Positions 12,716 to 44,420 are shown, counted from the stretch's first letter. The stretch is 64,000 bases of DNA from Nitrospirota bacterium (GCA_035623825.1 DASPSR010000020.1:64001-128000), one strand, 5' to 3'. The notes: a model not told the origin generated them from the letters alone. Translations and numbers: made by a program.

Positions 12716-13789
12716 TCATCCTTCTGCCGACAACCCGGAAATCTTGATTCCTTCCCGAAGAACTTCCTCTACCGTAATTTGCTCCATGCATGCCGGTCTC
12801 AAGCGTGCCGAGGGCTCGCATTCAGAAAAAAACTTTTGCCTGCACGGGGAACACTTTAATCCTTTGTAAATGACCTTTGAGCGTTTGCTCCAGGGACCGA
12901 ATTTGACCGGTGACTGCGGCCCAAAGAGGGCTACAAGGGGAGTCTGCGCCGCTGCTGCAAGATGCATGATTCCGCTGTCGTTTCCCACAAAGAGGGCGCA
13001 CTTTTTCAATAAGGCGATCGTTTCGCGAAGCGTACACTTGCCGACAAGGTCTACGGTACCTTCCCCGAACTGATGCCTCACTTGATTGAATGTTCTGCTA
13101 TCGCCTGTGCTTCCCACAATGATCGAACGGCAACCGGTTTCACTGCTTAACCGCTGGGCAAGTGAGGCAAAGTTTTCCAAGGGCCAGCCGCGCTCCACGA
13201 CCGCAGAAAAGGGATGCAGTGCAACCAATTTTTCTCCTGGACCTATCCCCTCTTTCAGCAGCAGCTGCCGGACGGCCTCTTCTTCCTTCGGCTCGGCCCA
13301 TATCTCTAAATAATCATCAGCTACTGGTATCCCGTCGGCACGCAATACATCAAGAAAGTTCTGGACCTCATGCCGATCATGTCGATAAGGGACCCGCGTT
13401 GTAAGGAGAAAGCCCCTCCCTTCCGTGTCGAACCCTATGCGCTCTCGAGCCCCACTTAGATAGGCCATGACAGCGCTCGTGAGGGATCGCTTGAGCACGT
13501 AAACCTTCTGGAAACCCCTGGACCGCAGATCGCGGATAAAAGAAAGTTTGGCAGAAAACGTCCGGTGCGTTCCCCTGCTATCGGCATGTATGGTCACCGG
13601 GTCCCAGTAGATCATTTCGTCCACATAGGGTATTCCTTTGACAACGTCGGAAGAACCGGGCGCCACCATCCACGCGATGAAGGCCTGCGGCTCGGCTCGA
13701 CGCAGGTTCCGCAGGAACGGCACGGTCAGGACCGTATCACCGATGAACCGGTAGCGCATCACGAGTATTTTTTTCGCCTCGAGATTCAT
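12716..13789 (-). CDS. waaF: LPS heptosyltransferase II (GT9)
   Basis: IGDTVLT and GNDSGIMHLAAA...VALFGP motifs. Confidence 0.8.
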   Translation of the reverse strand: MNLEAKKILVMRYRFIGDTVLTVPFLRNLRRAEPQAFIAWMVAPGSSDVVKGIPYVDEMIYWDPVTIHADSRGTHRTFSAKLSFIRDLRSRGFQKVYVLKRSLTSAVMAYLSGARERIGFDTEGRGFLLTTRVPYRHDRHEVQNFLDVLRADGIPVADDYLEIWAEPKEEEAVRQLLLKEGIGPGEKLVALHPFSAVVERGWPLENFASLAQRLSSETGCRSIIVGSTGDSRTFNQVRHQFGEGTVDLVGKCTLRETIALLKKCALFVGNDSGIMHLAAAAQTPLVALFGPQSPVKFGPWSKRSKVIYKGLKCSPCRQKFFSECEPSARLRPACMEQITVEEVLREGIKISGLSAEG

Positions 13790-13968
13790 CCTGGATTGTG
13801 ATGCATCCGTGAGAAGTGTTCTTTGCCACAGAGGACTTACTTACAGCTCATTTTACAAACAAGCAACTCCGGATGCTCTCCGTGACAAATGTCCGATGCT
13901 CCAATGTGACAGTCATCGTTTGTTCTAATTTGACTATCATGGACCATAACAGAATTTTCAGACCGGGA

Positions 13969-14991
13969 TCATGTCTTTACCGCGATCTTACCGTGCTCTT
14001 CCACCTTGTTCGCAAGGAAGCTGACCAGCGTTTCCAGACCCTCGCCGGTCACCGCCGAAACAGGGAAGAACCGATACCCGGCCTCATGACAGTGCAGCTC
14101 CAGTGCCTCAAGCTTTTCATGGTCCGCAGCGTCTATCTTGGTTGCTGCCACGGCCATGTACTTCTTCATGAGATCCTTGCTGTAGAGTTCGAGCTCGGTA
14201 TTGATCTTTTTGAAATTCTCAACAGGGTCACCGGGCACCATGCCGGACACGTCCACCAGATGAAGGAGGATTGAGGTCCGCTCGACATGGCGCAGAAATT
14301 CGAACCCGAGGCCCGCACCCTTATGCGCATTCTCGATGAGACCCGGAATATCCGCAACGACGAAGCTCTTCCTGCCTTCCGGCTTCACCACACCGAGCAC
14401 CGGGGTGAGCGTGGTGAAGGGATAATCCGCGATTTTCGGCTTGGCGGCTGAAATGCGCGAGATGAGCGTTGATTTGCCCGCATTCGGGAATCCCACAAGC
14501 CCGACATTGGCAAGAAGCTTGAGCTCAAGAAAAAGTAACTGCTCTTCACCGGGTTCGCCAGGCTGGGCAAACCTCGGCGCCTGGTGAGTCGCCGTCTTGA
14601 AAAAGGCGTTCCCCTTTCCGCCTCTCCCTCCTTTCGCGGCAATGAACTCCAGTCCGTCGGCATCCAGATCAATGATCAGCCCGTGGGTCTCGGCGTCGCA
14701 GACGAGCGTGCCAACGGGCACCCGGATCACAATACCGTCGGCGTCAGCGCCGGACTGCTGCTTTCCGCGGCCCTGCTCACCGTTCTTGGCGAAATAATTC
14801 TGCTGGTACTTGAGATCGATAAGCGTACCGAGCTGGCTGTCTGCCCTGATGATGATGTCACCACCCTTGCCGCCATCGCCGCCATCCGGTCCCCCGCGCG
14901 GTACATAGGCCTCACGCCTGAAGCTGACACAACCGCGCCCGCCGTGGCCCGCCTTAACATCAATCTTGACTCTGTCAATAAAGTTGGACAT
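13969..14991 (-). CDS. obgE: GTPase ObgE/CgtA
   Basis: Gly-rich Obg domain, GFPNAGKS, YPFTTL and DIPG. Confidence 0.97.
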   Translation of the reverse strand: MSNFIDRVKIDVKAGHGGRGCVSFRREAYVPRGGPDGGDGGKGGDIIIRADSQLGTLIDLKYQQNYFAKNGEQGRGKQQSGADADGIVIRVPVGTLVCDAETHGLIIDLDADGLEFIAAKGGRGGKGNAFFKTATHQAPRFAQPGEPGEEQLLFLELKLLANVGLVGFPNAGKSTLISRISAAKPKIADYPFTTLTPVLGVVKPEGRKSFVVADIPGLIENAHKGAGLGFEFLRHVERTSILLHLVDVSGMVPGDPVENFKKINTELELYSKDLMKKYMAVAATKIDAADHEKLEALELHCHEAGYRFFPVSAVTGEGLETLVSFLANKVEEHGKIAVKT

Positions 14992-23318: not shown

Positions 23319-23361
23319 TATGACATGCATCATACCAGAAAATTGCGTTTTGGATTATGCT
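23319..23361 (+). promoter_or_regulatory. Crp/Fnr-type box plus -10, upstream of norC
   Basis: TATGACATGCATCATA at 23319-23334; TATGCT at 23356. Confidence 0.72.
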
Positions 23362-23401
23362 TTTCCCGTTACTGGCAAAAATCCAAACCAAGGAGGTGCG
23401 T

Positions 23402-24085
23402 ATGGGAAATAAAGCAGCGAGGAATCTCTTTATCATTGGCAGTCTCTTCTTCTTCGTGGTCTTCCTTGCCCTCACAGTCGACACACTGGGGAAACTCGAC
23501 AAACGGGCACCGGAAATCACGCAAGCAGTTGACGACGGCAAAATGGTATGGCACAAGTACGATTGCATCGGATGCCATACCATTCTCGGGAACGGGACCT
23601 ATTTCGCTCCCGACCTGACCAAGGTAGCTGCTCGTAAGCCGAAAAGCTACCTTAAGCAGTTCATCATGGACCCCAAAGGAGTAAAGGGAGACGCGGTGAT
23701 GCCCACTCTTGGGATCAGCTCCACCGAAGCTGACAACCTTCTGGCTTTTCTCGACTGGATGTCCAAGGTCGACACGAACGGTTGGCCTCCCAAACCGATA
23801 CTTGCAACGGCCGCTGGCGTCGGGGGAAAAGAGCTGACTGCCGGACAACTGGTGTACCAGGCGCAGGGCTGCTCCAACTGCCATTCCATCAGCGGCATCG
23901 GCGGGACCTCTGGACCGGACCTGACGAAGGTAGGGAGCAGGCGCGATCGTGACTGGTTAATCGGCCATTTCAAGGACCCGCAGAAATATGTGAAGAATTC
24001 CGCGATGCCGCCGGTCACTGCCTCTAATGAGGAGATCGACCAACTCACAGCATACATGCTTACACTCAAGGAGGCGACAAAATGA
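23402..24085 (+). CDS. norC: Nitric oxide reductase subunit C (diheme variant)
   Basis: N-terminal TM, GKMVW..YDCIGCHTILGNGTYFAPDL; second domain CSNCH...GPDLT...AMP. Confidence 0.88.
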   Translation: MGNKAARNLFIIGSLFFFVVFLALTVDTLGKLDKRAPEITQAVDDGKMVWHKYDCIGCHTILGNGTYFAPDLTKVAARKPKSYLKQFIMDPKGVKGDAVMPTLGISSTEADNLLAFLDWMSKVDTNGWPPKPILATAAGVGGKELTAGQLVYQAQGCSNCHSISGIGGTSGPDLTKVGSRRDRDWLIGHFKDPQKYVKNSAMPPVTASNEEIDQLTAYMLTLKEATK

Positions 24086-25473
24086 CAATGAAATATAAAA
24101 GTCAAAGGATCGCGCAGTACTTTTACACCTTCGCGATCCTGCTGTTCCTCGTGCAGGTGCTCGTCGGCCTTATCGGCGCCCTCGAGTTCATATGGCCGAA
24201 CTTCTTCTTCCTGAAGTTTCACATCATCAAGACGCTCCATGTGAATGCGCTCGTGATCTGGCTCCTCGCCGGTCTCATGGGGGCGACCTACTATGTGGTT
24301 CCCGAGGAATCGGAAACGGAACTCTGGAGCTATCCTCTTGCCTTGTTTCAGTTCTGGGCAACGGTCGTTACCGTGACCTTGGTGGTGATCGGCTATATAT
24401 GGATGGGTTTCGACCCCCAGGCGAATAAGACGGTGTTCGGCACTCTGATACTGAACGAAGGCCGCGAGTATATCGAGGCCCCGCGCTGGGCGGACATTCT
24501 CATCGTGGTCTCGGTGCTTCTGTTCCTGTTCAACAACTTCATGACCATGTTCAAAACCAAGAAATGGACCGGAATTCAGGGCACGCTCCTGGGCGGCCTC
24601 GTGTTTTTGGCACTCATGTATCTGCCGGGCATGGTCTATACCAAGAGCATGGTCAAGGACCAGTTCTGGTGGTGGTGGGTGGTCCATCTCTGGGTAGAGG
24701 GCGCATGGGAGGTCATCGCGGGCGCCTTGCTCGCATTCATGCTGATGAAGGTGATCGGCGCGAAGCGTGAAGTGCTTGAAAAATGGATGTACATTGAGGT
24801 GGGCCTCGTAATGTTCACGGGTCTTTTAGGCACCGGCCATCACTATTACTGGATCGGAACGCCGGGATACTGGCTCTGGGTCGGCGGAATCTTCAGTTCC
24901 CTGGAACCCCTTCCCTTGCTCCTAATGGTCTGGGATGCGTTCAGGACGACTAGGGAGGCGCGGCAGGTCACGAACCGTGCCGGACTGTACTATACCGTGG
25001 CGCACGCGATCTTCAATTTCGTGGGCGCGGGCCTCTGGGGTGTGATCCACACCCTCCCACAGGTGAATAAGTGGACGCACGGCACGCAGATCACCGCGGC
25101 ACACGGCCACCTCGCGTTCTACGGGGCCTATGTGCTTCTGGTGATGTCCATGATCTATGTGACCCTTCCGGCGATCCGGGGAGTGAAAGAGTACGATCCG
25201 GGAAGAGCCTTTGCGTCTTTCTGGTGGATGACGATCTCAATGATATTCATGGTGTTCGTGCTCACCGGGGCAGGAATGGTGCAGGTCTACATGGAGCGGC
25301 TCATGGGGCTCGACTATGAGGCCGTGAAGGCGAATTACAATCTCTGGTTCTGGGTCTTCCGTGCGGTCTTCGGCGCCGGGTTCCTTGTGGGCGTCGCCAT
25401 CTTCGTCGTCGACTACTTCAAGCTCGGCGGGGAAGCGGCCCCTGCGCTTCAGACGGCAACGGACCGCGGTTGA
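24082..25473 (+). CDS. norB: Nitric oxide reductase subunit B
   Basis: GREYIE, WWVVHLWVEGAWE, GTGHHYYWIG, SSLEP and HGHLAFYG. Confidence 0.93.
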   Translation: MTMKYKSQRIAQYFYTFAILLFLVQVLVGLIGALEFIWPNFFFLKFHIIKTLHVNALVIWLLAGLMGATYYVVPEESETELWSYPLALFQFWATVVTVTLVVIGYIWMGFDPQANKTVFGTLILNEGREYIEAPRWADILIVVSVLLFLFNNFMTMFKTKKWTGIQGTLLGGLVFLALMYLPGMVYTKSMVKDQFWWWWVVHLWVEGAWEVIAGALLAFMLMKVIGAKREVLEKWMYIEVGLVMFTGLLGTGHHYYWIGTPGYWLWVGGIFSSLEPLPLLLMVWDAFRTTREARQVTNRAGLYYTVAHAIFNFVGAGLWGVIHTLPQVNKWTHGTQITAAHGHLAFYGAYVLLVMSMIYVTLPAIRGVKEYDPGRAFASFWWMTISMIFMVFVLTGAGMVQVYMERLMGLDYEAVKANYNLWFWVFRAVFGAGFLVGVAIFVVDYFKLGGEAAPALQTATDRG

Positions 25474-28157: not shown

Positions 28158-28769
28158 ATGTCTAGTGAATGCTGTGGTATTCGGGTCGGCCAGACGGTGC
28201 CGGATTTCAAGCTTGAGACCTATGATCCCTCGAAGGGCGATTTCAGCGAGATCAGCCTCGCCGCGCAGAAAGCGGCAAAAAAATGGACGGTTCTTTTCTT
28301 CTACCCTGCCGATTTCACTTTTGTTTGAGCGACGGAATTTGCTGCTCTGGCGGAGCAGTATGAAGCATTCAAAAAAGCCGGTGCCGAGGTGATTACTGTA
28401 AGCACCGATACCAAATTCGTCCACCTCGCATGGCAACGTGACGAGAAAATGCTCGAAAAAGTCAAATATCCCATGGGCTCTGATACTACCGGCAAACTGT
28501 CGCGATCATTCGGCGTCTATGATGAGGAGACAGGTCTTGCGCTGAGAGGGACGTTCATCATAAACCCTGATGGTGTTCTGCGCAACTCAGAAGTTAATTA
28601 TTACAATCTCGGCAGGAACATCGAAGAAATGTTGCGGAAGGTCAACGCGAACATTCACCTCGCAGCAAACCCCGTTGAAGCTTGCCCAGCCCAGTGGAAG
28701 AAGGAAGGTGACAAGACACTGAAACCCTCCGCTAAAATGGTCGGCAAGGTGTATGAGGCGTTGAAGTAA
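28158..28769 (+). CDS. prxU: Selenocysteine-containing peroxiredoxin (AhpC/Prx1 type)
   Basis: AGGAGG RBS, ATG at 28158, FFYPADFTFV-[TGA 28326-28328]-ATEF in frame with the track ORF 28389-28769; resolving EACPAQW; SECIS-like hairpin downstream. Confidence 0.9.
28340..28360 (+). promoter_or_regulatory. Bacterial SECIS-like hairpin
   Basis: TGCTGCTCT-GGC-GGAGCAGTA stem-loop starting 11 nt after the TGA, with G in the loop. Confidence 0.7.
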
Positions 28770-34740: not shown

Positions 34741-37180
34741 TCACTGCATGCTCACGGTGTCCGAACGCAATGCCGTGTTCGATTACATAGACGGCAGGCG
34801 AAAGGTCTTCTGCTGCCACGGGTGCAGCGGGATCTACAGGATCATTCACAGCGAGGGGCTTGACGAGTTCTACGCAAAAAGACGGGAGTGGACCCCGGGA
34901 CCAGCGGAAGACAAGGCCGTGGACGTATCTGCCTTCTTGGACGGTCTGAGGCCCGTAGGCCGCGAGATCGAAACGGACGTCATCGTCGACGGCATCCGGT
35001 GCGCGTCCTGCGTCTGGCTGAATGAGAAGTTACTGCTCCGGACGGAGGGGGTCTCGTACGCCAATGTGAATTATGCCACGCATCGGGCGAAGATCCGCTG
35101 GAACCCGGAAGAGATAGACATCGGCTCCATTCTCGCGCGCATCAAGTCCATCGGCTATGTCCCTAAACCGTTCCTTCCCAATGCCTGGGAGGACGAGCAG
35201 AAAAAGCAGGCCCGTGACCTGCTCATCCGCTTCGGCACCGCATCCTTTTTCTCCATGCAGCTCATGCTGTTCTCCATCGCCCTGTATGCGGGGTATTTCC
35301 AGGGAATCGATGAGAGGATCAAACTTTTCTTCCATCTGATCTCTTGTGCGCTCACGACACCGGTTCTGTTCTATTCGGGCTGGCCGATCATCCGGGGATC
35401 CTTGCGGGGTTTGAAGAATCTCACGTTCAACATGGATGTCCTGATCGCGGCGGGTTCCGTTTCCGCGTACGCCTACAGCATCTACCAGATGGCGGCCGGC
35501 GGCGAGGTCTATTTCGATACCGCGGCCATGATCGTCACCCTCATTCTGCTCGGCAGATACATCGAAGTAGGCGCCAAGGGAAAAGCGTCCGAAACCATCG
35601 GCAGGCTTATGCAACTCAGCCCCAAGGAAGCCCGGAAGCTGGAGATATCTCCGGACCAGGTTCGATCAATTGACCGGCTCCACCGCGCAGCTCGTCTGAT
35701 GGTACCCGTATCGTCTCTGCGTCCGGGAGACATAATTGAAGTTGTTCCCGGAGAGAAGATTCCTGCGGACGGCGTCGTGGTTACAGGGTCGTCGGAAGCG
35801 GACGAATCCATGCTTACCGGGGAATCGAGGCCTTCGCCGAAGACCGATGGAGCGTTGATATTCGGCGGCACGCTCAACCTTTACGGAAGCTTTGTATTCC
35901 AGGTCACCAAGACAGGCAAGGACACGGTGCTTGCGCAGATCATCCAGGCCGTCGAGGACGCCCAGGCGCGCCGTGCCCCGATCCAGGCCGTCGCCGATCG
36001 CGTCGTCGGTTCCTTCGTGCCCGCGGTTCTGCTCATCGCCTTGCTGACTTTCCTCGGATGGCTCTATCATGGCACTGCGGCGTCGCGCGCGGTGATGAAT
36101 GCGGTCTCGGTCATGGTGATCGCCTGCCCCTGTGCACTCGGACTTGCCACGCCACTTGCTATCCTGATCGGCACGTCCTATGGAGCATCTAGGGGAATAC
36201 TCATAAAAGGCGGGGATGTGATCGAGAAGGCGGCATCCGTTGATTTTGCCGTGTTGGACAAAACGGGGACCATAACCGAGGGGAGGCCCGTGCTGAGCGA
36301 AACTTTTGGCGTAGGGATACCAGACAGCGAGGCACTCCGGCTTGCACTGTCCCTCGAACGACGTTCAGAGCATTCCCTGGGCAAGGCAATCGTCGAAGCG
36401 GCGGGGGGGCTTGACCCGTTCGAGGTTGCTGATTTTTCCGTAGTCCCCGGCAAAGGAATCCAGGGGATGATTCTCGGGAAACCGGCGCTCATCGGCAGCA
36501 GAGAGTTCATCGAATCCCATGGCATTTACGGCAACATTGACGCCGCCCTGGACAATGAGAAACGATCGGGTCTGGTCGAAGCGGAGAAGACAGGGGCCAC
36601 GATCATCTTTCTGTGCTATGATCTAAGGGTGCGAGGAGCCTTCGTGGTTTCCGACAAAGTCAGGGTTGAGGCGGCGGAGACCATAGCTATGCTCAAGAAT
36701 GCCAGGCTCGGCGTGGCCATGGTAACGGGCGACAACCTCAATACAGCTGTGGCCGTGGCAAAAAAAACCGTGATCGATTCCGTGAAAGCGCGGGTATCGC
36801 CAATGGAAAAGGCTGATGAAATTCGACGCATGAAGAATGAAGGAAAGCACGTTCTTATGGCGGGGGACGGTATCAACGACGCTCCAGCGCTCGTACAGGC
36901 CACGGTTGGCGTTGCCATGGGGCGTGCGACGGACATCGCTCTCGAGAGCGCGGACATCGTCATCATGCGCTCCGATCTCAGACTGGTCGCTGACGCCGTA
37001 GCGCTCTCCAAAAAGACCTTCAGGGTCATCCGCCAGAACATCTTCTGGGCATTCTTTTATAATATCGTTTTCATCCCCCTGGCCATACTCGGCATCCTTC
37101 ACCCGATCATGGCAGCCGGCTCCATGGCTTTCAGTTCGCTCTCGGTGGTCGGAAATTCCCTGCGTGCGAGGATACGCTGA
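34727..37180 (+). CDS. ccoI: Cu-translocating P1B ATPase CcoI/FixI
   Basis: CDHC..FCCHGC, CASC, TGES, CPC, DKTGT, SEH, GDGIND and YN motifs. Confidence 0.92.
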   Translation: MPTCDHCMLTVSERNAVFDYIDGRRKVFCCHGCSGIYRIIHSEGLDEFYAKRREWTPGPAEDKAVDVSAFLDGLRPVGREIETDVIVDGIRCASCVWLNEKLLLRTEGVSYANVNYATHRAKIRWNPEEIDIGSILARIKSIGYVPKPFLPNAWEDEQKKQARDLLIRFGTASFFSMQLMLFSIALYAGYFQGIDERIKLFFHLISCALTTPVLFYSGWPIIRGSLRGLKNLTFNMDVLIAAGSVSAYAYSIYQMAAGGEVYFDTAAMIVTLILLGRYIEVGAKGKASETIGRLMQLSPKEARKLEISPDQVRSIDRLHRAARLMVPVSSLRPGDIIEVVPGEKIPADGVVVTGSSEADESMLTGESRPSPKTDGALIFGGTLNLYGSFVFQVTKTGKDTVLAQIIQAVEDAQARRAPIQAVADRVVGSFVPAVLLIALLTFLGWLYHGTAASRAVMNAVSVMVIACPCALGLATPLAILIGTSYGASRGILIKGGDVIEKAASVDFAVLDKTGTITEGRPVLSETFGVGIPDSEALRLALSLERRSEHSLGKAIVEAAGGLDPFEVADFSVVPGKGIQGMILGKPALIGSREFIESHGIYGNIDAALDNEKRSGLVEAEKTGATIIFLCYDLRVRGAFVVSDKVRVEAAETIAMLKNARLGVAMVTGDNLNTAVAVAKKTVIDSVKARVSPMEKADEIRRMKNEGKHVLMAGDGINDAPALVQATVGVAMGRATDIALESADIVIMRSDLRLVADAVALSKKTFRVIRQNIFWAFFYNIVFIPLAILGILHPIMAAGSMAFSSLSVVGNSLRARIR

Positions 37181-37365
37181 TGTGGAGCGTGTTTCTTCTG
37201 ATATTCCTTACGCTCTGCGCCGGTTTCGCCGGGTGGATGTTCTTTCTCTGGGCGGTCAAGAGCGGGCAGTACGATGATATCGAAGGACCGAAGTATCGGA
37301 TGCTCGAGGATGAGGAAAAAGAAAAAAGAAAAGATGAAGGGAAAAAAGAAGGAAAAGAAGATTGA
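37180..37365 (+). CDS. ccoS: cbb3 oxidase maturation protein CcoS/FixS
   Basis: FLWAVKSGQYDDIEGP. Confidence 0.9.
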   Translation: MWSVFLLIFLTLCAGFAGWMFFLWAVKSGQYDDIEGPKYRMLEDEEKEKRKDEGKKEGKED

Positions 37366-37391
37366 TCTGCCGCAATTCGGAAGTGTCTCAA

Positions 37392-37937
37392 TTACACCCA
37401 GTACTCCGGATATTTTCTGCTCTTCGAAAGATTGTTCACGAGCAGGGCGATAACCAGCAGCACAGCGGCGCCCGTACCTGCGGGAATGAAAGCATAGAGG
37501 AAACCGAGGTTGTGAATTTTTGCTCCGCCGATGACAGCGATGAGCGCCGTCGCTCCTCCGGGCGGGTGGAGCGTTTTGGTGACTAGCATGACGACGATGG
37601 CCACGGAAACGGCCATCGCTGCTGCCACCCAGATGGTGTTGCCGAACAGCTGATAGCATGCAACGCCTGCAAGGCCTGAGAGCACGTGTCCTCCGATGAG
37701 GTTTCTCGGCTGGGCCAGCGGGCTTTTGATAGCACTGTACACAAGGACCGCCGAAGCGCCGAACGACCCGATGAGCATCGTCATGTCTCGTGGTTCGAAG
37801 TACCACGATGAGAGATAACCGCACACACCGATGCCGAGCGCCGATCCAAGCCATGACCAGACCATTTCGATGATGCCGACGCCGGGCGGGCTCTTTGCAC
37901 CGCCTTTCATCTTTGATAGATATTCAGCGATGGTCAT
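37392..37937 (-). CDS. HPP family membrane protein
   Basis: SFGASAVL, SPLAQPRN..GGH and LHPPGGATAL. Confidence 0.92.
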   Translation of the reverse strand: MTIAEYLSKMKGGAKSPPGVGIIEMVWSWLGSALGIGVCGYLSSWYFEPRDMTMLIGSFGASAVLVYSAIKSPLAQPRNLIGGHVLSGLAGVACYQLFGNTIWVAAAMAVSVAIVVMLVTKTLHPPGGATALIAVIGGAKIHNLGFLYAFIPAGTGAAVLLVIALLVNNLSKSRKYPEYWV

Positions 37938-37992
37938 GATATCCCATCCACAATAAGACGGTCTCCATGGCTTTCTTCTTCCGTCTTCCTCC

Positions 37993-38580
37993 TCACGGTT
38001 TCTTGCCTATCACCTTCAGGATATCAGCCCTCGAAATGATGCCGATGAGTTTGCCTTCGTCATCGACAACGGGAAGACGCTTTATTCTCCGATCATCGAG
38101 TATCTGCGCCACTTCGACTATATCGTCATCGGCTTTACTGGTAATAGGAGGAAAGCCCATGACATCCCCGACCTTGTTCCCGCCTTTTTTGGCGGTTACG
38201 GGCTCGCCGAGGATATTGCGTAAAATATCCTTAAAGGTATGCTCCTTCTTCATTCCCGCAAGGATAAGGATATCCGCCTCGCTGACGACGCCTATCACGC
38301 GGTTATTATCATCGACCACGGGCATGCCGCTTATCCTGTTCTCCGACAGGAGCCTCGCCGCTTCGTGGAGGTCGGCGTCCCTTTTAATGGTGACCACCGT
38401 CCTCGTCATCACATCCCGGACGGGAACACGCGTTGCCAGACGCTCCTGAGCATGACGGAGTGCGATCTCAAAGATCTTCTTCAGATCCTCCTCGGTCACG
38501 TCCATATAGGTTTTCATTTCCAGGAGTGCCGCTCTGAGATCCTCTTCCGACACCCTGCATTGTTCCGGCTGATTATCCAT
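37993..38580 (-). CDS. CBS-pair domain protein
   Basis: Two CBS domains (ISGMPVVD, IKRLPVVD...GIISRADI); GAGAGGA RBS. Confidence 0.88.
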   Translation of the reverse strand: MDNQPEQCRVSEEDLRAALLEMKTYMDVTEEDLKKIFEIALRHAQERLATRVPVRDVMTRTVVTIKRDADLHEAARLLSENRISGMPVVDDNNRVIGVVSEADILILAGMKKEHTFKDILRNILGEPVTAKKGGNKVGDVMGFPPITSKADDDIVEVAQILDDRRIKRLPVVDDEGKLIGIISRADILKVIGKKP

Positions 38581-38603
38581 TCGTCCTCTCATGATATTGT
38601 CCG

Positions 38604-38646
38604 ATGATAACAGAACCACCAAAGACCTGGTATGACGAAAATCATA
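38604..38646 (-). promoter_or_regulatory. Crp/Fnr-type box plus -10, upstream of CBS-HPP
   Basis: TATGACGAAAATCATA at 38631-38646; minus-strand TG-T-TATCAT at 38609-38604. Confidence 0.72.
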
Positions 38647-38664
38647 TGGGGATTGCGCTTCTTG

Positions 38665-39561
38665 TTACCTGTTCTTTTCCTCTGCCTTGGCAACGATCCA
38701 GTACACGAAGCCGATAACGAGGACGGCCGCGATGAGATAGTAGATGGCCTCCGGCTTTTCGTGTTTAAGGGTGGCGATCATAGTCTCCCGAATCAGAGTC
38801 ACGAGGGCCACACCCACGAACACGCTGGTATGGAACTTACCCCCCTTGAGGTGCGATATCTCGGTGTTCATGAGCTCGGTCATGAGCCAGAGCAGCAGCA
38901 TGGATCCCAGTGCCGAGATGATACCTGACTCCACATCGCCTGTGAGAAGGCGCATAACGTCATGAAGGAAGAGCCATACGACACCGAGTGTAAGGCCGAT
39001 CAGCGCGATCACGAGCATGAGGTTCGTGGTTTGGGAGAAACGCTCGGAAAAACTGATCAGAGCGCTTTTTACCTTGTATACAGGAGCGAATGTCCTGAGC
39101 TCTTCCTCGATATAAGAAGTGGTGATCACATCCAGGCTGATGTCAAGGATCTTGCCGACGGAAATTATCTTGTTGGTTGCCTCCACCTTATCCTCTTCAA
39201 TCTTTTGCAGGATGCCGATGCAGGCATTCTTTACGATGTTGACCGCCCTGTTCATGAAGTGAGGATCAACGTTCTGTTTGACATGGGTGGAGCCGATCCG
39301 AATGAGTTTTTCATAATATCGGTTGTCGTACTTGCCCGAAAAGAGTTCCAGAAACCATGTTCGTTGGGCGCCGAAGACATGCCTTTTCCGCGATTCTTCA
39401 GTAAAGAACTGTGCCGCGCCCTTGGTGCCCATGATCCAGAGACTGAGAGTGCTCATGACCTCGTCGACATGCTCTTCCATGAGCGGTCGCAGGCCAGCCA
39501 GGCGTTTTTCGTCATCTTCCGTGAACCGGTAGTCGTGTTTGATTTCCCTGAAAGATCGCAT
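38665..39561 (-). CDS. Sensor-globin/protoglobin domain fused to PsiE-like membrane domain
   Basis: LFSGKYD..YYEKLIRIGSTH (proximal His), KILDISLD; four C-terminal TM helices. Confidence 0.75.
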   Translation of the reverse strand: MRSFREIKHDYRFTEDDEKRLAGLRPLMEEHVDEVMSTLSLWIMGTKGAAQFFTEESRKRHVFGAQRTWFLELFSGKYDNRYYEKLIRIGSTHVKQNVDPHFMNRAVNIVKNACIGILQKIEEDKVEATNKIISVGKILDISLDVITTSYIEEELRTFAPVYKVKSALISFSERFSQTTNLMLVIALIGLTLGVVWLFLHDVMRLLTGDVESGIISALGSMLLLWLMTELMNTEISHLKGGKFHTSVFVGVALVTLIRETMIATLKHEKPEAIYYLIAAVLVIGFVYWIVAKAEEKNR

Positions 39562-39711
39562 AAAAGGCAATATCCTTACTCTTTAGTATAGCATACTCAC
39601 CGCTGCCGGAGTCGTATCCGCCTTCTCTCCTGCAAAAAAACAATATAAACGGGAGTAAACAGTGAACTATTCCTTAATTACGCCTGTTCTGTCATCCAAT
39701 CAAAAGATTTT

Positions 39712-39891
39712 TCATGCTTTGGTAGACACCAGTTTCCACACCAACTTGCCCGAAGCTACTCGGGTATCCAGCTTTTCCTCCTTCGTCCTCTGCGGCATTT
39801 TCACCAGCGAGTCATAGGTGAGGATGAGAAAAATCACGGCTGATATTGCCGTTCCCCAGATGAAAATTGCCTTGCTTTGAGACAGCGTCAT
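39712..39891 (-). pseudogene. Truncated norC-like remnant
   Basis: MTLSQSKAIFIWG..FLILTYDS..ASGKLVW aligns with the N-terminus of the intact NorC but stops before CxxCH. Confidence 0.7.
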
Positions 39892-39921
39892 GCCATCCTC
39901 CTTTCCCGTCACTGCAATTAT

Positions 39922-42330
39922 TTATTCCCATCCATCCTGTACGATCTTATGCGATTTCCTGTATGGATATTTTTCCACAAGTTTTTTTATCTGGAGCTTC
40001 TGGTCTCCATCGCGCATGGCATGAAGCAAGACGACGGATGCCCAATAGTCGCCGGCGTACTCGGAACCACGGAGCTGGTCAGGGACTCCTTTTTCATTCA
40101 CCCGGTGGCAGGCCGCGCAGGTCACGGGCCCTGCGTATTTCCCGTCGGGACTGAACTGGAGCGCCTGCTCATGGCTCGTGAGGTCGACGGTCCCCTCAGG
40201 TCCTTCATATCGCACCGGGTAAAGACCGTGGATGGACTCATGACAGGACTGGCAGGCAATGGTCCCGTGAGCCTTGGAATAGCGGTAAAGAGAATATTTG
40301 TTAGGCTGGTCAATTGGGAAATAGCCACCCCCTTCGCTCTCTACAAAGGGGGCCAGATGACAATCCGCGCAGTGCGGCTCCCCTGCCGCCAACCACCAGT
40401 CCTTTCCTCCCGAAGCACTGTCATACAACACAGGATCGCCTTCTTTTGAGTTCCAAGGGAGAAGTTTGAGCTTCCCTGAGCTGTCAAATGAAGAGCGCAC
40501 GAGTATTGCTCCGACATGTTCCTCGTAATACGAACGGAGCGGTTCTCCGTCGGCCCCTACGACCGGGTCGGCGAAAGTGCTTCTGAACTTCTTTGCGTTT
40601 CCCAGCGAGACCGTCGTTATGATATCGTTGACCGACTTGTTTCGAAGCGTTTTGCCTGTCTGAGAGGATGCATCTTTGAGATCGTCGTAGCGATACAGCT
40701 CTTGCGAAAGCAGGTTGTGACAGTTGGAGCAGTACAAACCCCTGGGCTTGGATAGGGTATTGCCGTCTTCGTCTTTCATGCTCACCCCCTTCAAATACCA
40801 CTTGCCCAGGGGATTCAGAAAGAAAGGCGGTTTCGCGTCAGGGTTGGTGTGAGCGTCCCTTCTGAGATAGCACCCTCCGCCGGCGGACCTTACATCCTGC
40901 CCTGAAAAGCGCGGGTTCCCCTCCTCATCCACAATCCGGTATGGATTGGCCGAGGGGTCATTCATTTTCTCCTCCTGCCAGTGCATGGGATGGCATGCCT
41001 GGCAGCTTTGCGTCCTTCCCGCCTTATCAGGCATGGGGATAAATGCCGCATGCGCAGCATGGATCGCTTCGCTAAGCGCCCTCGCCTTCACGGCTTTATA
41101 CCCCGTCGCGCCGAGCCTGGGTGTCTTGAGATTTCCCGAGACATTGTCACCGTGACAGTCCGCACAATAGACCGGACCGACGGAGCCAAGCCGGTTATAT
41201 GATACATCTGGGTTGTACTGTTTCAAAAAAGCCGTGCCGAAATATTTATCATGCAGTTCGAGCACATTGATCATCGCCTGTGACTGCCTTGCCACGAACT
41301 CGGTGATATCAGGATAGTTCTTTTTCCAGTAGGCATACTCCTTGTCGAAAAGGGACAAACCCGCCTCCCTCGCCAGTTTAGCTGCCTTGCCTTGGCCCGA
41401 GTGGCAAAGGTAGCAATTCGGCAGATCTACGGGATTTGTGCCGAAAAACTGAATCGGTTTCCCTTCCGCCGTTACGGGCTTGCCGTCTTTGTCATGCAGC
41501 TGGACTACGGAGACCTGGTAGGGTTGAAAGTCTCTTTCCGTGATAGTACGAATAGTGCCCTTCCGACTGCTGTCGTTGAATGCGGTCAGGGGCAGCCCGA
41601 GCGCGTCCCACAAGAACGATGCGGTGAGCGTCAAAGGCACGTTTTTGACTTCCGGCAGCAGAGAATCGGTAAAGACTTTGTTGCCGCCAGTGCTCCCCGC
41701 ATAGGAGAGGTAGCCGCCTGCAATGTTCTTCCCCGTGGGGCCGGAATCAACGGGAACTTGAATCTCCAGCCCCACACGCAACCTCTTCATTTTGTGCCTG
41801 TCCTGCGGGATGGTGCCTTCGAGATCCTGATAGATGAAAAGGTGCGTCCATACGTAATTCGCCATGTCATCTCCCGGTTCATCCATCCTGCCGCTGTTGA
41901 CTACATCCTTAGGCACTTGCCAGTATCGCATCTTGTTTCCCTCGCTGTAGCTGTTGTCTTTTATAAAGTATGCGAGCGATAACCCGTCGTCCGGCGATAG
42001 CAGATGAGGGAGCGCGCCGTCGGCACTGGTCCTGACGGCCTGGGCCTGAATGCTGTTGTATGGCGGGATGACGCAACAATAGGAGATGTCGAACCCCACA
42101 CAGTGCATTCCCAGCTCATAATTGATGAATATGGCGTAGGGATCCCTGGGGTCATAGAGGTTCACGGTCTTCCCCGATCTGTCCTTAACCGAGACTGGCT
42201 TCAGCAGATCTGTTTTGAAGGGCGGGGTGGGATCATAAGGTGGCTGGGGCGCTGCAATAAGAGTGAGCTGGGTAAAAGCAATGATCATCGCCAGGGATAG
42301 GCTGATCCCGATCAGCCGAAGGGCTTTCAT
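39922..42330 (-). CDS. Large exported multiheme cytochrome c (7 CxxCH)
   Basis: Signal peptide; CYLCH, CADCH, CQACH, CSNCH, CADCH, CQSCH, CAACH; N-terminal ELGMHC...CCVIPPYN. Confidence 0.85.
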   Translation of the reverse strand: MKALRLIGISLSLAMIIAFTQLTLIAAPQPPYDPTPPFKTDLLKPVSVKDRSGKTVNLYDPRDPYAIFINYELGMHCVGFDISYCCVIPPYNSIQAQAVRTSADGALPHLLSPDDGLSLAYFIKDNSYSEGNKMRYWQVPKDVVNSGRMDEPGDDMANYVWTHLFIYQDLEGTIPQDRHKMKRLRVGLEIQVPVDSGPTGKNIAGGYLSYAGSTGGNKVFTDSLLPEVKNVPLTLTASFLWDALGLPLTAFNDSSRKGTIRTITERDFQPYQVSVVQLHDKDGKPVTAEGKPIQFFGTNPVDLPNCYLCHSGQGKAAKLAREAGLSLFDKEYAYWKKNYPDITEFVARQSQAMINVLELHDKYFGTAFLKQYNPDVSYNRLGSVGPVYCADCHGDNVSGNLKTPRLGATGYKAVKARALSEAIHAAHAAFIPMPDKAGRTQSCQACHPMHWQEEKMNDPSANPYRIVDEEGNPRFSGQDVRSAGGGCYLRRDAHTNPDAKPPFFLNPLGKWYLKGVSMKDEDGNTLSKPRGLYCSNCHNLLSQELYRYDDLKDASSQTGKTLRNKSVNDIITTVSLGNAKKFRSTFADPVVGADGEPLRSYYEEHVGAILVRSSFDSSGKLKLLPWNSKEGDPVLYDSASGGKDWWLAAGEPHCADCHLAPFVESEGGGYFPIDQPNKYSLYRYSKAHGTIACQSCHESIHGLYPVRYEGPEGTVDLTSHEQALQFSPDGKYAGPVTCAACHRVNEKGVPDQLRGSEYAGDYWASVVLLHAMRDGDQKLQIKKLVEKYPYRKSHKIVQDGWE

Positions 42331-42342
42331 AACGCCACCTCC

Positions 42343-42690
42343 TTATTTGCGCCGTTCAATCATTTCCTTGAGCGCAACAGCGTTGTTGTGCTCCGTATCC
42401 TTCGCCGAGAAGAGGAGCGTCACTGTCCCGCTGCTCGCTTCCTTTCGGAGCCGTTCGAGGATGTCCTTCCTGTCCGCGAGCTCTTTTCTGAACTTTTCCC
42501 GGAACGCAGGCCATTTGGCCGGATCGTGGGCAAACCATTTCCGAAGCGCATCGCTCGGCGCGATGTCCTTGAGCCATTCGTCGATCCTGGCTTCGACCTT
42601 TTTGATCCCCCGTGGCCAGAGCCTGTCAACGAGAATCCGCTTGCCGTCGCTCCGTGACGGCGGATCGTATATCCGCTTGATCATTATCAT
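42343..42690 (-). CDS. DUF488 (YeaO-like) protein
   Basis: IKRIYD..DGKRILVDRLWPRG..APSDALRKWFAH..HNNA. Confidence 0.88.
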   Translation of the reverse strand: MIMIKRIYDPPSRSDGKRILVDRLWPRGIKKVEARIDEWLKDIAPSDALRKWFAHDPAKWPAFREKFRKELADRKDILERLRKEASSGTVTLLFSAKDTEHNNAVALKEMIERRK

Positions 42691-42699
42691 GCCCGAAGG

Positions 42700-42870
42700 T
42701 CATCTCGTCACTAAGATCTTCTCGAATTGATCTTTTGATGCCGCGCAGACAGGACAGGCCCAGGTATCGGGAATCTTCTCGAACGGCGTTCCCGGAGCAA
42801 TGCCTCCGTCCGGATCACCGATCGCGGGATCATAGACCCAGTCGCAGACCGTACATCTCCATTTGTCCAT
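42700..42870 (-). CDS. Rubredoxin
   Basis: CTVC..YDP..GDP..PGTPFE..WACPVC; GGAGG RBS. Confidence 0.95.
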
Positions 42871-43490
42871 CCAGCCACCTCCCGAAGGGAATTTTAGCGA
42901 CAATCATCAGAGTCAGGAAAAACGGCATGAGTAATCACGGAAAAGACAACCGGAAAACCAATAAGGACTTGAATTTTATGCTAAATGTGTATACGAAGTT
43001 TATTAGACCCTGTTTGCCATTCCGAGCCTTTACGAAAAAAATGCTGTCAAAGAATGACAAAAATATAGCACATTCTTAGGATGTGTGCTTCATAATCATG
43101 TAATACTTTTATTGGAGCCGCTTTGAGCCGGAGCAAGCAGATCGTGACCTCCATTGTCCCGATAAGACAGCCGAGGTTATTGGGAACAAGATATGTCAGT
43201 GCGGTACCCTGCGGGAAAACCTCAAAATGCTAGCAACGAATTGCAGGAAGGAATTAATAACAGGAACGTAATAAATTACCGTGCCCCAATCGCCGATGCT
43301 GCCGCGAAGACTGCACGGAGTAAAACCGCATGGCTTCATCATTCACTACAATCTTCTTGAAATGACGAATGAATCCTGTTAAAGTTGACTAAATAACCGA
43401 ACCATTTACCGCACTATGACATCCCGCTTATAATGTTCTCTTGGTTGTTTAATGACTTATGAGAAATGACAAATCAAGGAGAATCCCATC

Positions 43491-44420
43491 ATGCACAACA
43501 GAGAACAGATTCAGCAGAGGCTTGATGAACTTATACGAGAATACGGCAGCTGGGCCAATGACATCCCTCTCCTTTTTGACGTCTGGACCAGGGGAAATCT
43601 GCGAATACCGCATACAAGACTCAAGCGAATAGTCCAAGCTGTGAGCGATCTATCCAAGAAGCCGATTTCTGAATGCCGCATCCTCGATTTGGGATGTCTG
43701 GATGGGATGTTCTCCATTGAATTCGCATTACAGGGGGCTGACACGATTGGTGTGGAGATAAGAGAAGCTAACATTAAGAAAGCCCTGTTCTGCAAAGAAG
43801 TTCTGAATCTGCAAAATCTGGATTTTCGCCGGGACGATGTCAGAAACATATCCGTCGAGTCGTATGGTAGATTTGACGCCATTATATGCAGTGGCATCCT
43901 CTATCACTTACCTTCCGTTGACGCGATCAACCTTATCAGGACTATGCATGAGATGTCGCATAGACTCGTCGTGATCGACACTCATGTGGCTCTTGAGCCG
44001 ATAGGGAGAGTTCTTAACAACGGCGACGAATATTGGGGCGATATATACCGCGAGCACCCCGATGACTCAACTCCGGAGGAGAAAGCGAAGAGGCCGTGGG
44101 CCTCGGCAGATAATCCGCTTAGCTTCTGGTTCACCAGGCCTTCCTTGGTCAACATCCTCAGCAAAGCCGGGTTCTCCTCCGTATATGAGTGCTTTACCCC
44201 TGCACACTTGAATTATGGAAAACCCGGACTCGAACATCAGAATCGATGCACTTTCATTGCGCTCAAGGACGACATCAGTGAGCTCAAAACGTCGCCCGAG
44301 GCCAATGGTCTTCAGGAAAGATGGCCCGAAGGAAGCCTTAGTTACGCTCCTAAATCAAAAACCCGGATCAGGCGCTTGTACAAAAGAGTGTTACTGAAAC
44401 TCAAGGGAATGAGAGCCTGA
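43491..44420 (+). CDS. Class I SAM methyltransferase (CmoB/DUF1698-like)
   Basis: ILDLGCLDG, GVEIR and FDAIICSGILYHL. Confidence 0.8.
   Translation: MHNREQIQQRLDELIREYGSWANDIPLLFDVWTRGNLRIPHTRLKRIVQAVSDLSKKPISECRILDLGCLDGMFSIEFALQGADTIGVEIREANIKKALFCKEVLNLQNLDFRRDDVRNISVESYGRFDAIICSGILYHLPSVDAINLIRTMHEMSHRLVVIDTHVALEPIGRVLNNGDEYWGDIYREHPDDSTPEEKAKRPWASADNPLSFWFTRPSLVNILSKAGFSSVYECFTPAHLNYGKPGLEHQNRCTFIALKDDISELKTSPEANGLQERWPEGSLSYAPKSKTRIRRLYKRVLLKLKGMRA

Follow-up and report, generated by a model that had tools for sequence, protein, structure and literature searches.

A heptaheme cytochrome gene in a compact Nitrospirota gene run

The window analyzed here is a 64,000-nucleotide stretch of DNA from a Nitrospirota bacterium (GCA_035623825.1, DASPSR010000020.1:64001-128000), and our subject is a gene within it that encodes an intact, 802-residue heptaheme c-type cytochrome (39922-42330, minus strand), recognized by its open reading frame (ORF), its seven CxxCH heme-binding motifs and its homologs. 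As a first-pass annotation of the sequence had noted, the gene stands in a compact run; this run is on the minus strand. A rubredoxin gene (42700-42870; PF00301, E-value 1.4e-23, and NF045768) comes first, followed by a gene for a DUF488 protein (42343-42690; PF04343, E-value 2.2e-33, and PF22752) that lies 12 nucleotides (nt) upstream of the cytochrome gene, the cytochrome gene itself, with the ribosome-binding site AAGGAGG 7 nt before its ATG, and a norC-like stub (39712-39912).

The CxxCH motifs are found at residues 306, 389, 443, 534, 654, 693 and 738, which gives one heme per ~115 residues. A regular-expression scan of the protein found no CxxCK, no CX3-4CH and no CX11-17CH. Four further cysteines lie outside the heme motifs: C77, C85 and C86 in the motif ELGMHC(77)-x6-YC(85)C(86)-x2-PPYN of the heme-free domain, and C487 in the motif GGC(487)YLRRDAH(494) of the heme region. 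These observations reproduce what the first-pass annotation had described, namely seven widely spaced CxxCH without CxxCK, ~300 heme-free N-terminal residues and the ELGMHC and GGCYLRRDAH motifs. Its statement that there is no obvious NrfA or HAO pattern also held, as no NrfA or HAO profile matched the protein at E-values up to 0.1.

From its N-terminus, the protein consists of a Sec-type signal peptide with neither a lipobox nor twin arginines, as read from the sequence (residues 1-27; 42250-42330), a heme-free domain modeled as a beta-sandwich (residues 28-300; 41431-42249), a helical region with hemes 1-4 (residues 301-640; 40411-41430) and a C-terminal three-heme module (residues 641-760; 40051-40410), all on the minus strand. 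The N-termini of the homologs are hydrophobic and end in A-x-A, a conserved YD-x-NPPF marks the approximate start of the mature protein, and the signal-peptide stretch is the least conserved part of the protein. Because the signal peptides are of the ordinary Sec type and a lipobox-like motif occurs in just 5 of the 120 best homologs, the cytochrome is most likely soluble in the periplasm. Several CxxCH motifs in an exported protein are the features that define a c-type multiheme cytochrome, and both are present. Pfam matches are confined to the last three hemes, where residues 652-745 score 34.3 bits against PF22113 (MtrC/MtrF domain II/IV; cut-off 30) and 32.6 bits against PF14522 (cytochrome c7; cut-off 24.8). 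The NCBIfam search of the cytochrome returned no family.

A large, slowly evolving family

A protein search covering 5.8 billion clustered proteins yielded 7999 candidates that were examined, at least 1129 of them relatives of the cytochrome at E-values up to 0.001. The best 120 homologs are 786-875 residues long and 65-81% identical to it. All 120 contain exactly seven CxxCH motifs and none contains CxxCK; beyond residue 40, exactly 18 cysteines (14 for heme and four others) occur in 107 of them. The ratio of nonsynonymous to synonymous substitution (dN/dS), calculated against four relatives, is 0.09-0.12. The uniform heme count and this low dN/dS mark the ORF as a real gene and not a chance reading frame, and it is an intact, strongly constrained gene of a large, unnamed and slowly evolving family. 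A library clustered at 50% identity (1.84 billion representatives) contained 463 matches at E-values up to 0.001. At this level the main family collapses into one representative, and the other full-length relatives are 34-56% identical to the cytochrome, several of them larger and carrying 8-16 hemes. The family is conserved about as core enzymes are, yet we found no full-length curated model and no solved relative in Pfam, NCBIfam or the PDB, and no paper on it in a literature search whose coverage leaves out subscription journals.

A scan of one genome per species identified at least 799 stretches encoding a relative, and the best 80 of these related loci (designated by L numbers) are the basis of the neighborhood counts given below. 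They comprise 26 loci from Nitrospirota, 46 from Campylobacterota (Sulfurovum, Sulfurimonas, Sulfuricurvum and Sulfurospirillum), three from Aquificota (Persephonella), two from one betaproteobacterial bin, and one each from Desulfobacteraceae, Acidobacteriota and a 'delta proteobacterium'. Identity to the Campylobacterota and Aquificota homologs is 60-68% over ~800 residues. The FastTree phylogeny comprised 66 rows of the main family, restricted to ORFs 760-860 residues long, and six outgroup rows. Campylobacterota and Aquificota each formed one clade with a support of 100, the Nitrospirota clade (support 89) included the Desulfobacteraceae row and the betaproteobacterial bin, and the branches between phyla were short. 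One Sulfurovum locus (L045) contains the heptaheme gene in two tandem copies of 785 residues each, which are sister rows in the tree. We also sampled 201 genomes of Nitrospirota, 201 of Campylobacterales and 54 of the window's own taxonomic family. The gene is patchily distributed: it was present in 21 of the 201 Nitrospirota, in 17 of the 201 Campylobacterales, and in 19 of 53 genomes within the window's taxonomic family.

A conserved cysteine and arginine site

The heme-free domain matches the heme region in conservation. Among 25 main-family sequences, invariant columns make up 35% of the heme-free domain, 27% of the region of hemes 1-4 and 47% of the C-terminal three-heme module, which is the most conserved part of the cytochrome. 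The best-conserved 15-residue stretches include YCCVIPPYNSIQAQA, IFINYELGMHCVGFD and AGGGCYLRRDAHTNP, and both cysteine loops, M75-H76-C77...C85-C86 (42073-42108, minus strand) and G485-G486-C487-Y-L-R-R491-D492-A-H494 (40849-40878, minus strand), are among the top stretches. All four extra cysteines are present in 242 of the 244 sequences that cover both motifs. The remaining two (P0126 and P0144) have none of the four and keep GMH, R-D-x-H and the seven CxxCH motifs; the extra cysteines are kept or lost together. The second loop has the form GGC(Y/F)xxRDxH, and R491, D492 and H494 are invariant, distant relatives included. Since the heme domain offers eight invariant and one nearly invariant histidine outside the CxxCH motifs for its seven hemes, histidine counting cannot decide how the hemes are coordinated.

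We modeled the cytochrome with AlphaFold2 from 31 sequences, obtaining a mean predicted local distance difference test (pLDDT) score of 75.9 and a predicted template modeling score of 0.80. The model is beta-rich to about residue 300 and mainly helical in the heme region that follows. Residues 74-90 and 485-493, which correspond to the two cysteine loops, are among the few segments with a pLDDT below 50. Low confidence restricted to such loops in an otherwise fair model is what would be expected if a cofactor shaped them. In this arrangement, loops 74-90 and 485-494 would meet and contact a heme, M75 or H76 probably touching it, and the four thiols would form one functional unit together with R491 and D492. 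C77 and C487 may be candidates for cysteine axial ligands.

Fold comparisons identified no established relative. Foldseek searches of the PDB with the whole model gave no match at E-values up to 0.001, and VIA-align returned generic immunoglobulin-like sandwiches alone, for residues 64-305 with Z ~5 (root-mean-square deviation of 2.9-4.0 over 83-103 residues of the N-terminal domain). For the heme domain, modeled separately (pLDDT 67.8), VIA-align gave nothing above Z 4.1. A PDB sequence search with the cytochrome and a profile search with a 42-sequence heme-domain profile found no relevant relative. The ESM Atlas returned unnamed clusters of the cytochrome's own family alone, and a search of its named clusters with the N-terminal domain gave no usable match. 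Because heme proteins modeled without heme are poor queries, these blank searches do not prove a new fold.

A periplasmic multiheme enzyme as the favored interpretation

The first-pass annotation had read the low heme density as a sign of an enzyme rather than a wire. This view is supported by that density, by the conserved heme-free domain and by the non-heme Cys/His/Arg site. Slow evolution over the full length, together with the low heme density and the conserved thiol/arginine site, argues for an enzyme with a defined small substrate. The gene mostly stands alone, and we found no porin or outer-membrane partner in the 80 related loci or in a distant set of 62 loci (L089-L150), obtained by scanning metagenome contigs with a 48%-identical relative. 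The interpretation we favor, while giving it somewhat less than an even chance, is that the cytochrome is a soluble enzyme of the periplasm, catalyzes a multi-electron reaction and has a thiol-rich cap over its catalytic heme. Electrons would enter or leave via the c7-like module, and the heme chain would carry them to or from the catalytic heme, which the two conserved loops would cap to form a thiol- and arginine-rich site. This site could be a cysteine-ligated heme, an MccA-like heme-copper site or a set of redox-active cysteine pairs, and a complement of seven hemes would fit a reaction in which a small inorganic anion exchanges several electrons.

Sulfur enzymes such as TsdA, SoxA, DsrJ and MccA typically have additional cysteines at their catalytic hemes. 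Carriers of the gene include the sulfur oxidizers Sulfurimonas, Sulfurovum, Sulfuricurvum and Persephonella, as well as dsr-bearing Nitrospirota such as Ca. Sulfobium. Because of these extra cysteines at hemes and of these sulfur-oxidizing and dsr-bearing carriers, we rank sulfur chemistry first among the possible reactions, and nitrogen-oxide chemistry, which draws mainly on the operon position discussed below, second. An inorganic sulfur species (polysulfide, thiosulfate or sulfite) is thus a tentative choice of substrate, and nitrogen oxides or hydroxylamine are an unlikely one. The genome to which the window belongs has a DsrA match of 570 bits, and a SoxB search of it found none. Among Campylobacterales, SoxB occurs in 11 of the 17 carriers versus 55 of the 184 non-carriers. 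A cysteine-ligated heme with a second chalcogen residue is described for MccSep, a periplasmic multiheme polysulfide reductase (PMC13510729). A survey of sulfur disproportionation (PMC12998232) makes no mention of heme or cytochrome c.

In its fullest form our proposal, which in this form is speculative and probably wrong in at least one part, would make the family a new enzyme class whose members are soluble, periplasmic and multiheme. A four-cysteine site (a cysteine-ligated heme or a heme-copper site), contributed in part by a new beta-sandwich domain, would cap the catalytic heme. The enzyme would catalyze a multi-electron step in the sulfur or nitrogen metabolism of chemolithotrophs to which no enzyme has been assigned, for example the periplasmic activation of polysulfide or elemental sulfur in Sulfurimonas, Sulfurovum, Persephonella and dsr-bearing Nitrospirota. 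The carriers include dominant sulfur oxidizers of vents and sediments along with Nitrospirota of peat and aquifers. If the cytochrome proves to be an enzyme, metabolic models built from genomes currently lack an assignment for a widespread step in the cycling of sulfur or nitrogen.

Several points weigh against this interpretation. The skew of SoxB among carriers, and that of the cd1-type nitrite reductase NirS described below, may only mark free-living chemolithotrophs, and related genomes do not count as independent samples. Within one Nitrospirota lineage, the cytochrome gene has the same orientation as the nor operon around it and follows a conserved promoter-like motif, which favors a nitrogen-oxide role there. 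The contact of the two loops with each other and with a heme is our inference. All seven hemes could be coordinated by two histidines each, and the four cysteines could, on a more sober view, form two structural disulfides. The curated profiles that match the protein are all of electron-transfer cytochromes. The wider relatives include lipoproteins and, by a weak structural likeness (template modeling score 0.47), cargo of the type IX secretion system, which points to surface electron transfer.

That the cytochrome catalyzes nothing is a minority possibility that we nevertheless take seriously. It would then carry or store electrons in the periplasm, connecting complexes of the membrane with partners in the periplasm or farther out, with the N-terminal domain as a docking module and the four cysteines as structural disulfides. 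Consistent with such a role, c7 and MtrC/MtrF domain II/IV are the sole profile matches, the conserved histidines suffice for seven bis-histidine hemes, and relatives in the wider family are lipoproteins of greater size that carry 8-16 hemes. A MORN_2-repeat protein encoded beside the gene in Campylobacterota could be a docking partner. Genes of distant relatives are arranged in tandem with those of a larger paralog and a peptidyl-prolyl isomerase (PPIase), resembling the Uet electron-conduit cluster, which includes a PPIase (PMC10734462). Against a mere carrier, however, stands the cross-phylum identity of 60-68%, which extends over the full length and includes the heme-free domain. Electron-conduit cytochromes diverge fast, and such conservation across phyla is unusual for them. 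The low heme density, the lack of a porin or outer-membrane partner in any of the locus sets, and the joint retention or loss of the cysteines, beside the invariant R-D-x-H loop, likewise argue for an enzyme.

The norC remnant and the resident nor operon

The norC-like stub reported in the first-pass annotation proved to be a genuine norC remnant. Its 66-residue ORF (39712-39912, minus strand; true ATG at 39891, homology ending at 39736) is 83-87% identical over residues 8-59 to the N-terminus of the intact, 223-residue diheme NorC that is encoded directly after the cytochrome gene in L001, L013 and L016. The ORF runs on for 12 residues beyond the homology and stops short of the CNDCH motif present in these relatives. 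NorC has a membrane anchor followed by a CxxCH heme domain; in the stub the anchor is present and homologous and the heme domain is absent, which makes it a remnant and not a member. It thus shares the N-terminal 52 residues with the NorC of cytochrome c-dependent nitric oxide reductase (cNOR), but is truncated before the first CxxCH and has no norB here. The gene after norC encodes NorB in L001 and L016, and the L001 protein matches the cNOR NorB of P. aeruginosa (3o0r_B) with an E-value of 4e-124.

Comparison by blastn revealed that the window lacks L001 positions 12730-14899 (~2.2 kb), which hold the rest of norC and all of norB. The deleted ~2170 bases are replaced at the junction by 140 unalignable bases (39596-39735). 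Contigs of four other peat metagenome runs (X2-X5) bridge this junction with 0 differences; the deletion is therefore not an artifact of a single assembly, with the reservation that the runs may share one campaign. Elsewhere, norB is reduced to two fragments in L013 (13158-13454) and norC to 50 residues in L022 (4209-4358). Together with the window, this makes at least three cases in which the neighboring norCB decayed beside an intact cytochrome gene. The genes affected are the second (type B, ~50% identical) norCB pair of this Nitrospirota group. The window also contains an intact second pair 14 kb from the run (23357-25473, plus strand; Pfam), composed of norC (diheme, 242 residues) and norB (463 residues), and this NorB matches 3o0r_B with an E-value of 1.4e-114. 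In this intact NorC, the cytochrome c domain, usually single, is present twice.

Beyond the junction, the minus strand continues with genes for a protoglobin-PsiE fusion (38665-39570; PF11563, PF06146), a CBS-pair protein (37993-38622; PF00571) and an HPP family membrane protein (37392-37937; PF04982, E-value 3.3e-59). We compared the norB regions of four genomes of the window's taxonomic family that lack the cytochrome. In all four, norC-norB is accompanied by the protoglobin-PsiE, CBS and HPP genes, with rubredoxin directly before norC in three, and none has the cytochrome gene in its nor cluster. As non-carriers have the cluster without the cytochrome, the nor operon is the resident unit, and the cytochrome gene is located within it in a single lineage of Nitrospirota. 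Its association with nor genes is therefore a local one, an older nitric oxide reductase operon enclosing the gene there. Of 54 genomes of the taxonomic family, 51 encode protoglobin-PsiE, non-carriers included and usually beside norCB, CBS and HPP genes; the fusion may act as a heme sensor in the membrane or as an accessory protein of NO reductase. In L020 and L022, DUF488 is directly before norC, and the cytochrome gene lies ~5-6 kb away on the other strand. Among 20 carriers of the taxonomic family, eight have norB or protoglobin-PsiE no more than 3 kb from the cytochrome gene; the distance to protoglobin-PsiE is 81 kb in one nearly complete assembly and 288 kb in another. NorB itself (E-values up to 1e-60) was found in 14 of 20 carriers versus 24 of 34 non-carriers; one carrier (G067) has just a distant, 38% NorB match.

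An extended -10-like motif, AATGTGCTATATTTTT (43059-43074, minus strand), lies ~190 nt before the rubredoxin gene and is aligned in five of five loci with this gene order. The exact pattern is limited to the window and L001, L011, L013 and L016, and it may be a promoter-like element of the window's clade. A palindrome after this motif (TGTCA-N5-TGACA) was dropped as a candidate, since it is not kept in L013 or L011. Promoter and terminator scans of the region gave nothing telling, and an Rfam scan of 37000-44000 gave a single sub-threshold miRNA match, taken as chance.

The first-pass annotation had suggested from the position next to norC that the cytochrome is an undescribed nitrogen-oxide enzyme, a suggestion that the resident operon without the cytochrome undermines. 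Linkage of homologs to nor genes, which it had proposed to examine, was confined to 6 of the 80 loci (L001, L011, L013, L016, L020 and L022) within the fetched flanks, all of one Nitrospirota clade; none of the 46 Campylobacterota and none of the 3 Aquificota loci had nor genes nearby. The anticorrelation with nirS that it had anticipated did not appear either, as a cd1-type gene (E-values up to 1e-40) was present in 13 of the 17 Campylobacterales carriers versus 67 of the 184 non-carriers. As part of an older operon, the nor genes are no guide to the function of the cytochrome, which corrects a tempting inference.

We accordingly consider it improbable that the cytochrome is a nitrogen-oxide enzyme working with cNOR, whether as an NO-forming nitrite reductase, a hydroxylamine oxidoreductase or in the handling of NO, although some observations speak for it. 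In the clade of the window, the gene shares the orientation of rubredoxin-DUF488 on one side and norC-norB on the other, with 9-170 nt to its neighbors and the conserved promoter-like motif ahead, and the same operon encodes the protoglobin-PsiE and HPP proteins. The HPP family includes nitrite transporters. The window's own genome (89.65% complete) has no nirS (best match 27.6 bits) and no nirK, but has NrfA (518 bits) and cNOR. The frequency of cd1-type genes suggests that the carriers are mostly denitrifiers. The nor cluster without the cytochrome in all four non-carriers, the restriction of the linkage to one clade, the equal frequency of NorB in carriers and non-carriers and the threefold decay of the adjacent norCB beside an intact cytochrome gene all argue against this role, however, as does the lack of CxxCK and of NrfA or HAO profile matches. 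Co-occurrence with cd1 NirS instead of its replacement argues against a substitute nitrite reductase in particular. A NirS match was found in a Persephonella carrier (426 bits) and in Sulfurimonas indica (214 bits) and in none of three other carriers. Two of the 13 cd1-positive Campylobacterales carriers have a gene of the ~400-bit kind and 11 one of the ~190-215-bit kind. Campylobacterales genomes show two classes of NirS-sized cd1 matches, scoring ~390-410 bits (with a second match beside) and ~160-215 bits.

That the cytochrome has some other function altogether is likewise unlikely. More specifically, a peroxidase or oxidative-stress enzyme, or an oxidoreductase of metals or metalloids (Fe, Mn, As, Se), is very improbable: the carriers are microaerophilic or live at redox interfaces, and in the window a cbb3 oxidase assembly cluster (ccoNO, ccoG, fixH, ccoI, ccoS) precedes the cytochrome gene, but this cluster is on the opposite strand and does not accompany the gene at other loci, no di-heme peroxidase profile matched, and we saw no specific signal of such a function.

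Comparison with known multiheme systems

The outer-membrane cytochromes MtrC, OmcA and MtrF and the c7 cytochromes are the known proteins closest to the C-terminal module, which exceeds both Pfam cut-offs, and both MtrC/OmcA/MtrF and the cytochrome join heme domains to a heme-free, beta-rich domain. In contrast, MtrC, OmcA and MtrF are lipoproteins with ten hemes in two pentaheme domains and have porin-cytochrome partners, whereas the cytochrome described here has seven hemes, is predicted to be soluble and has no porin or MtrA neighbor in the 80 loci. It is also far more strongly conserved and has the extra Cys/Arg site. No structural match to OmcA (4lmh) was obtained (Foldseek probability 0.05-0.06).

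The octaheme sulfite reductase MccA (SirA) has a heme-copper active site held by two cysteines. Like the cytochrome it is a periplasmic multiheme protein with extra cysteines, but it has eight hemes and a CX12-15CH motif, compared to seven hemes and no CX11-17CH. No sequence or profile match to MccA/SirA was found, nor were partners of the MccC/D type found near genes of the cytochrome family. A thioredoxin is also encoded near distant relatives of the cytochrome, as a counterpart of SirH, which is encoded in the SirA gene cluster (PMC6976685). According to PMC13510729, MccSep of Geobacter sulfurreducens is soluble and periplasmic, with a cysteine that ligates the catalytic heme and an essential second chalcogen residue, and is reported mainly in Desulfobacterota and in Thermodesulfovibrionia (Nitrospirota). 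Its likeness to the cytochrome is functional only: MccSep as described there has five hemes, a mass of ~49 kDa and a selenocysteine, in contrast to seven hemes, and our PDB search gave no such match, although an MccSep entry was possibly absent from it.

NrfA, HAO/HDH and the octaheme nitrite reductases are, like the cytochrome, periplasmic multiheme proteins, and they are enzymes of multi-electron nitrogen chemistry. An NrfA would be expected to have CxxCK and to match PF02335, but the cytochrome and its 120 best homologs have no CxxCK, and no PF02335 match was found at E-values up to 0.1. HAO-type enzymes have eight hemes instead of seven; no profile matched, and the fold searches, made with weak models lacking heme (pLDDT 67.8 for the heme domain), were blank.

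Other neighbors and distant relatives

We found no neighbor shared across phyla among the related loci. In Campylobacterota exclusively, a MORN_2-repeat periplasmic protein of ~225 residues is encoded 18-290 nt from the cytochrome gene on the same strand, in 29 of the 80 loci (within L034-L078, e.g. L065:5280-5957) and sometimes in two copies. In the distant set, the relatives (42-47% identity) occur in a different array (e.g. L113, L120, L121, L123 and L124) that encodes a larger paralog, a SurA-like PPIase, the ~775-residue heptaheme cytochrome, a small protein without assignment and a TlpA/ResA-like thioredoxin. The PPIase is present in 32 of the 62 distant loci and the thioredoxin in 27, with CxxC, mostly CPPC, in all 27; a sigma-54 activator was found in nine and a diheme cytochrome c in five.

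SirH, a thioredoxin of the TlpA/DsbE/ResA kind, aids the maturation of the octaheme sulfite reductase SirA (PMC6976685). A PPIase neighbor was considered as a mark of an enzyme and rejected, as a PPIase gene likewise belongs to the Uet conduit cluster (PMC10734462). For the same reason, the thioredoxin and PPIase neighbors indicate special maturation needs and not catalysis. A possible PPIase in the mcc cluster of Wolinella was set aside as evidence, since PMC8076601 gives a different account of MccB.

Elsewhere in the window, a 126-residue ORF (28389-28769, plus strand) directly before an Rrf2 regulator and ccoNO matches positions 63-123 only of the 124-position AhpC/TSA profile, and represents a truncated peroxiredoxin or a mis-set start. 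In L042 (17527-18861) and five other Sulfurovum loci, a 444-residue multiheme cytochrome is encoded ~5 kb downstream of the heptaheme gene, and this protein is related to OcwA of Thermincola (6i5b, E-value 5.5e-21).

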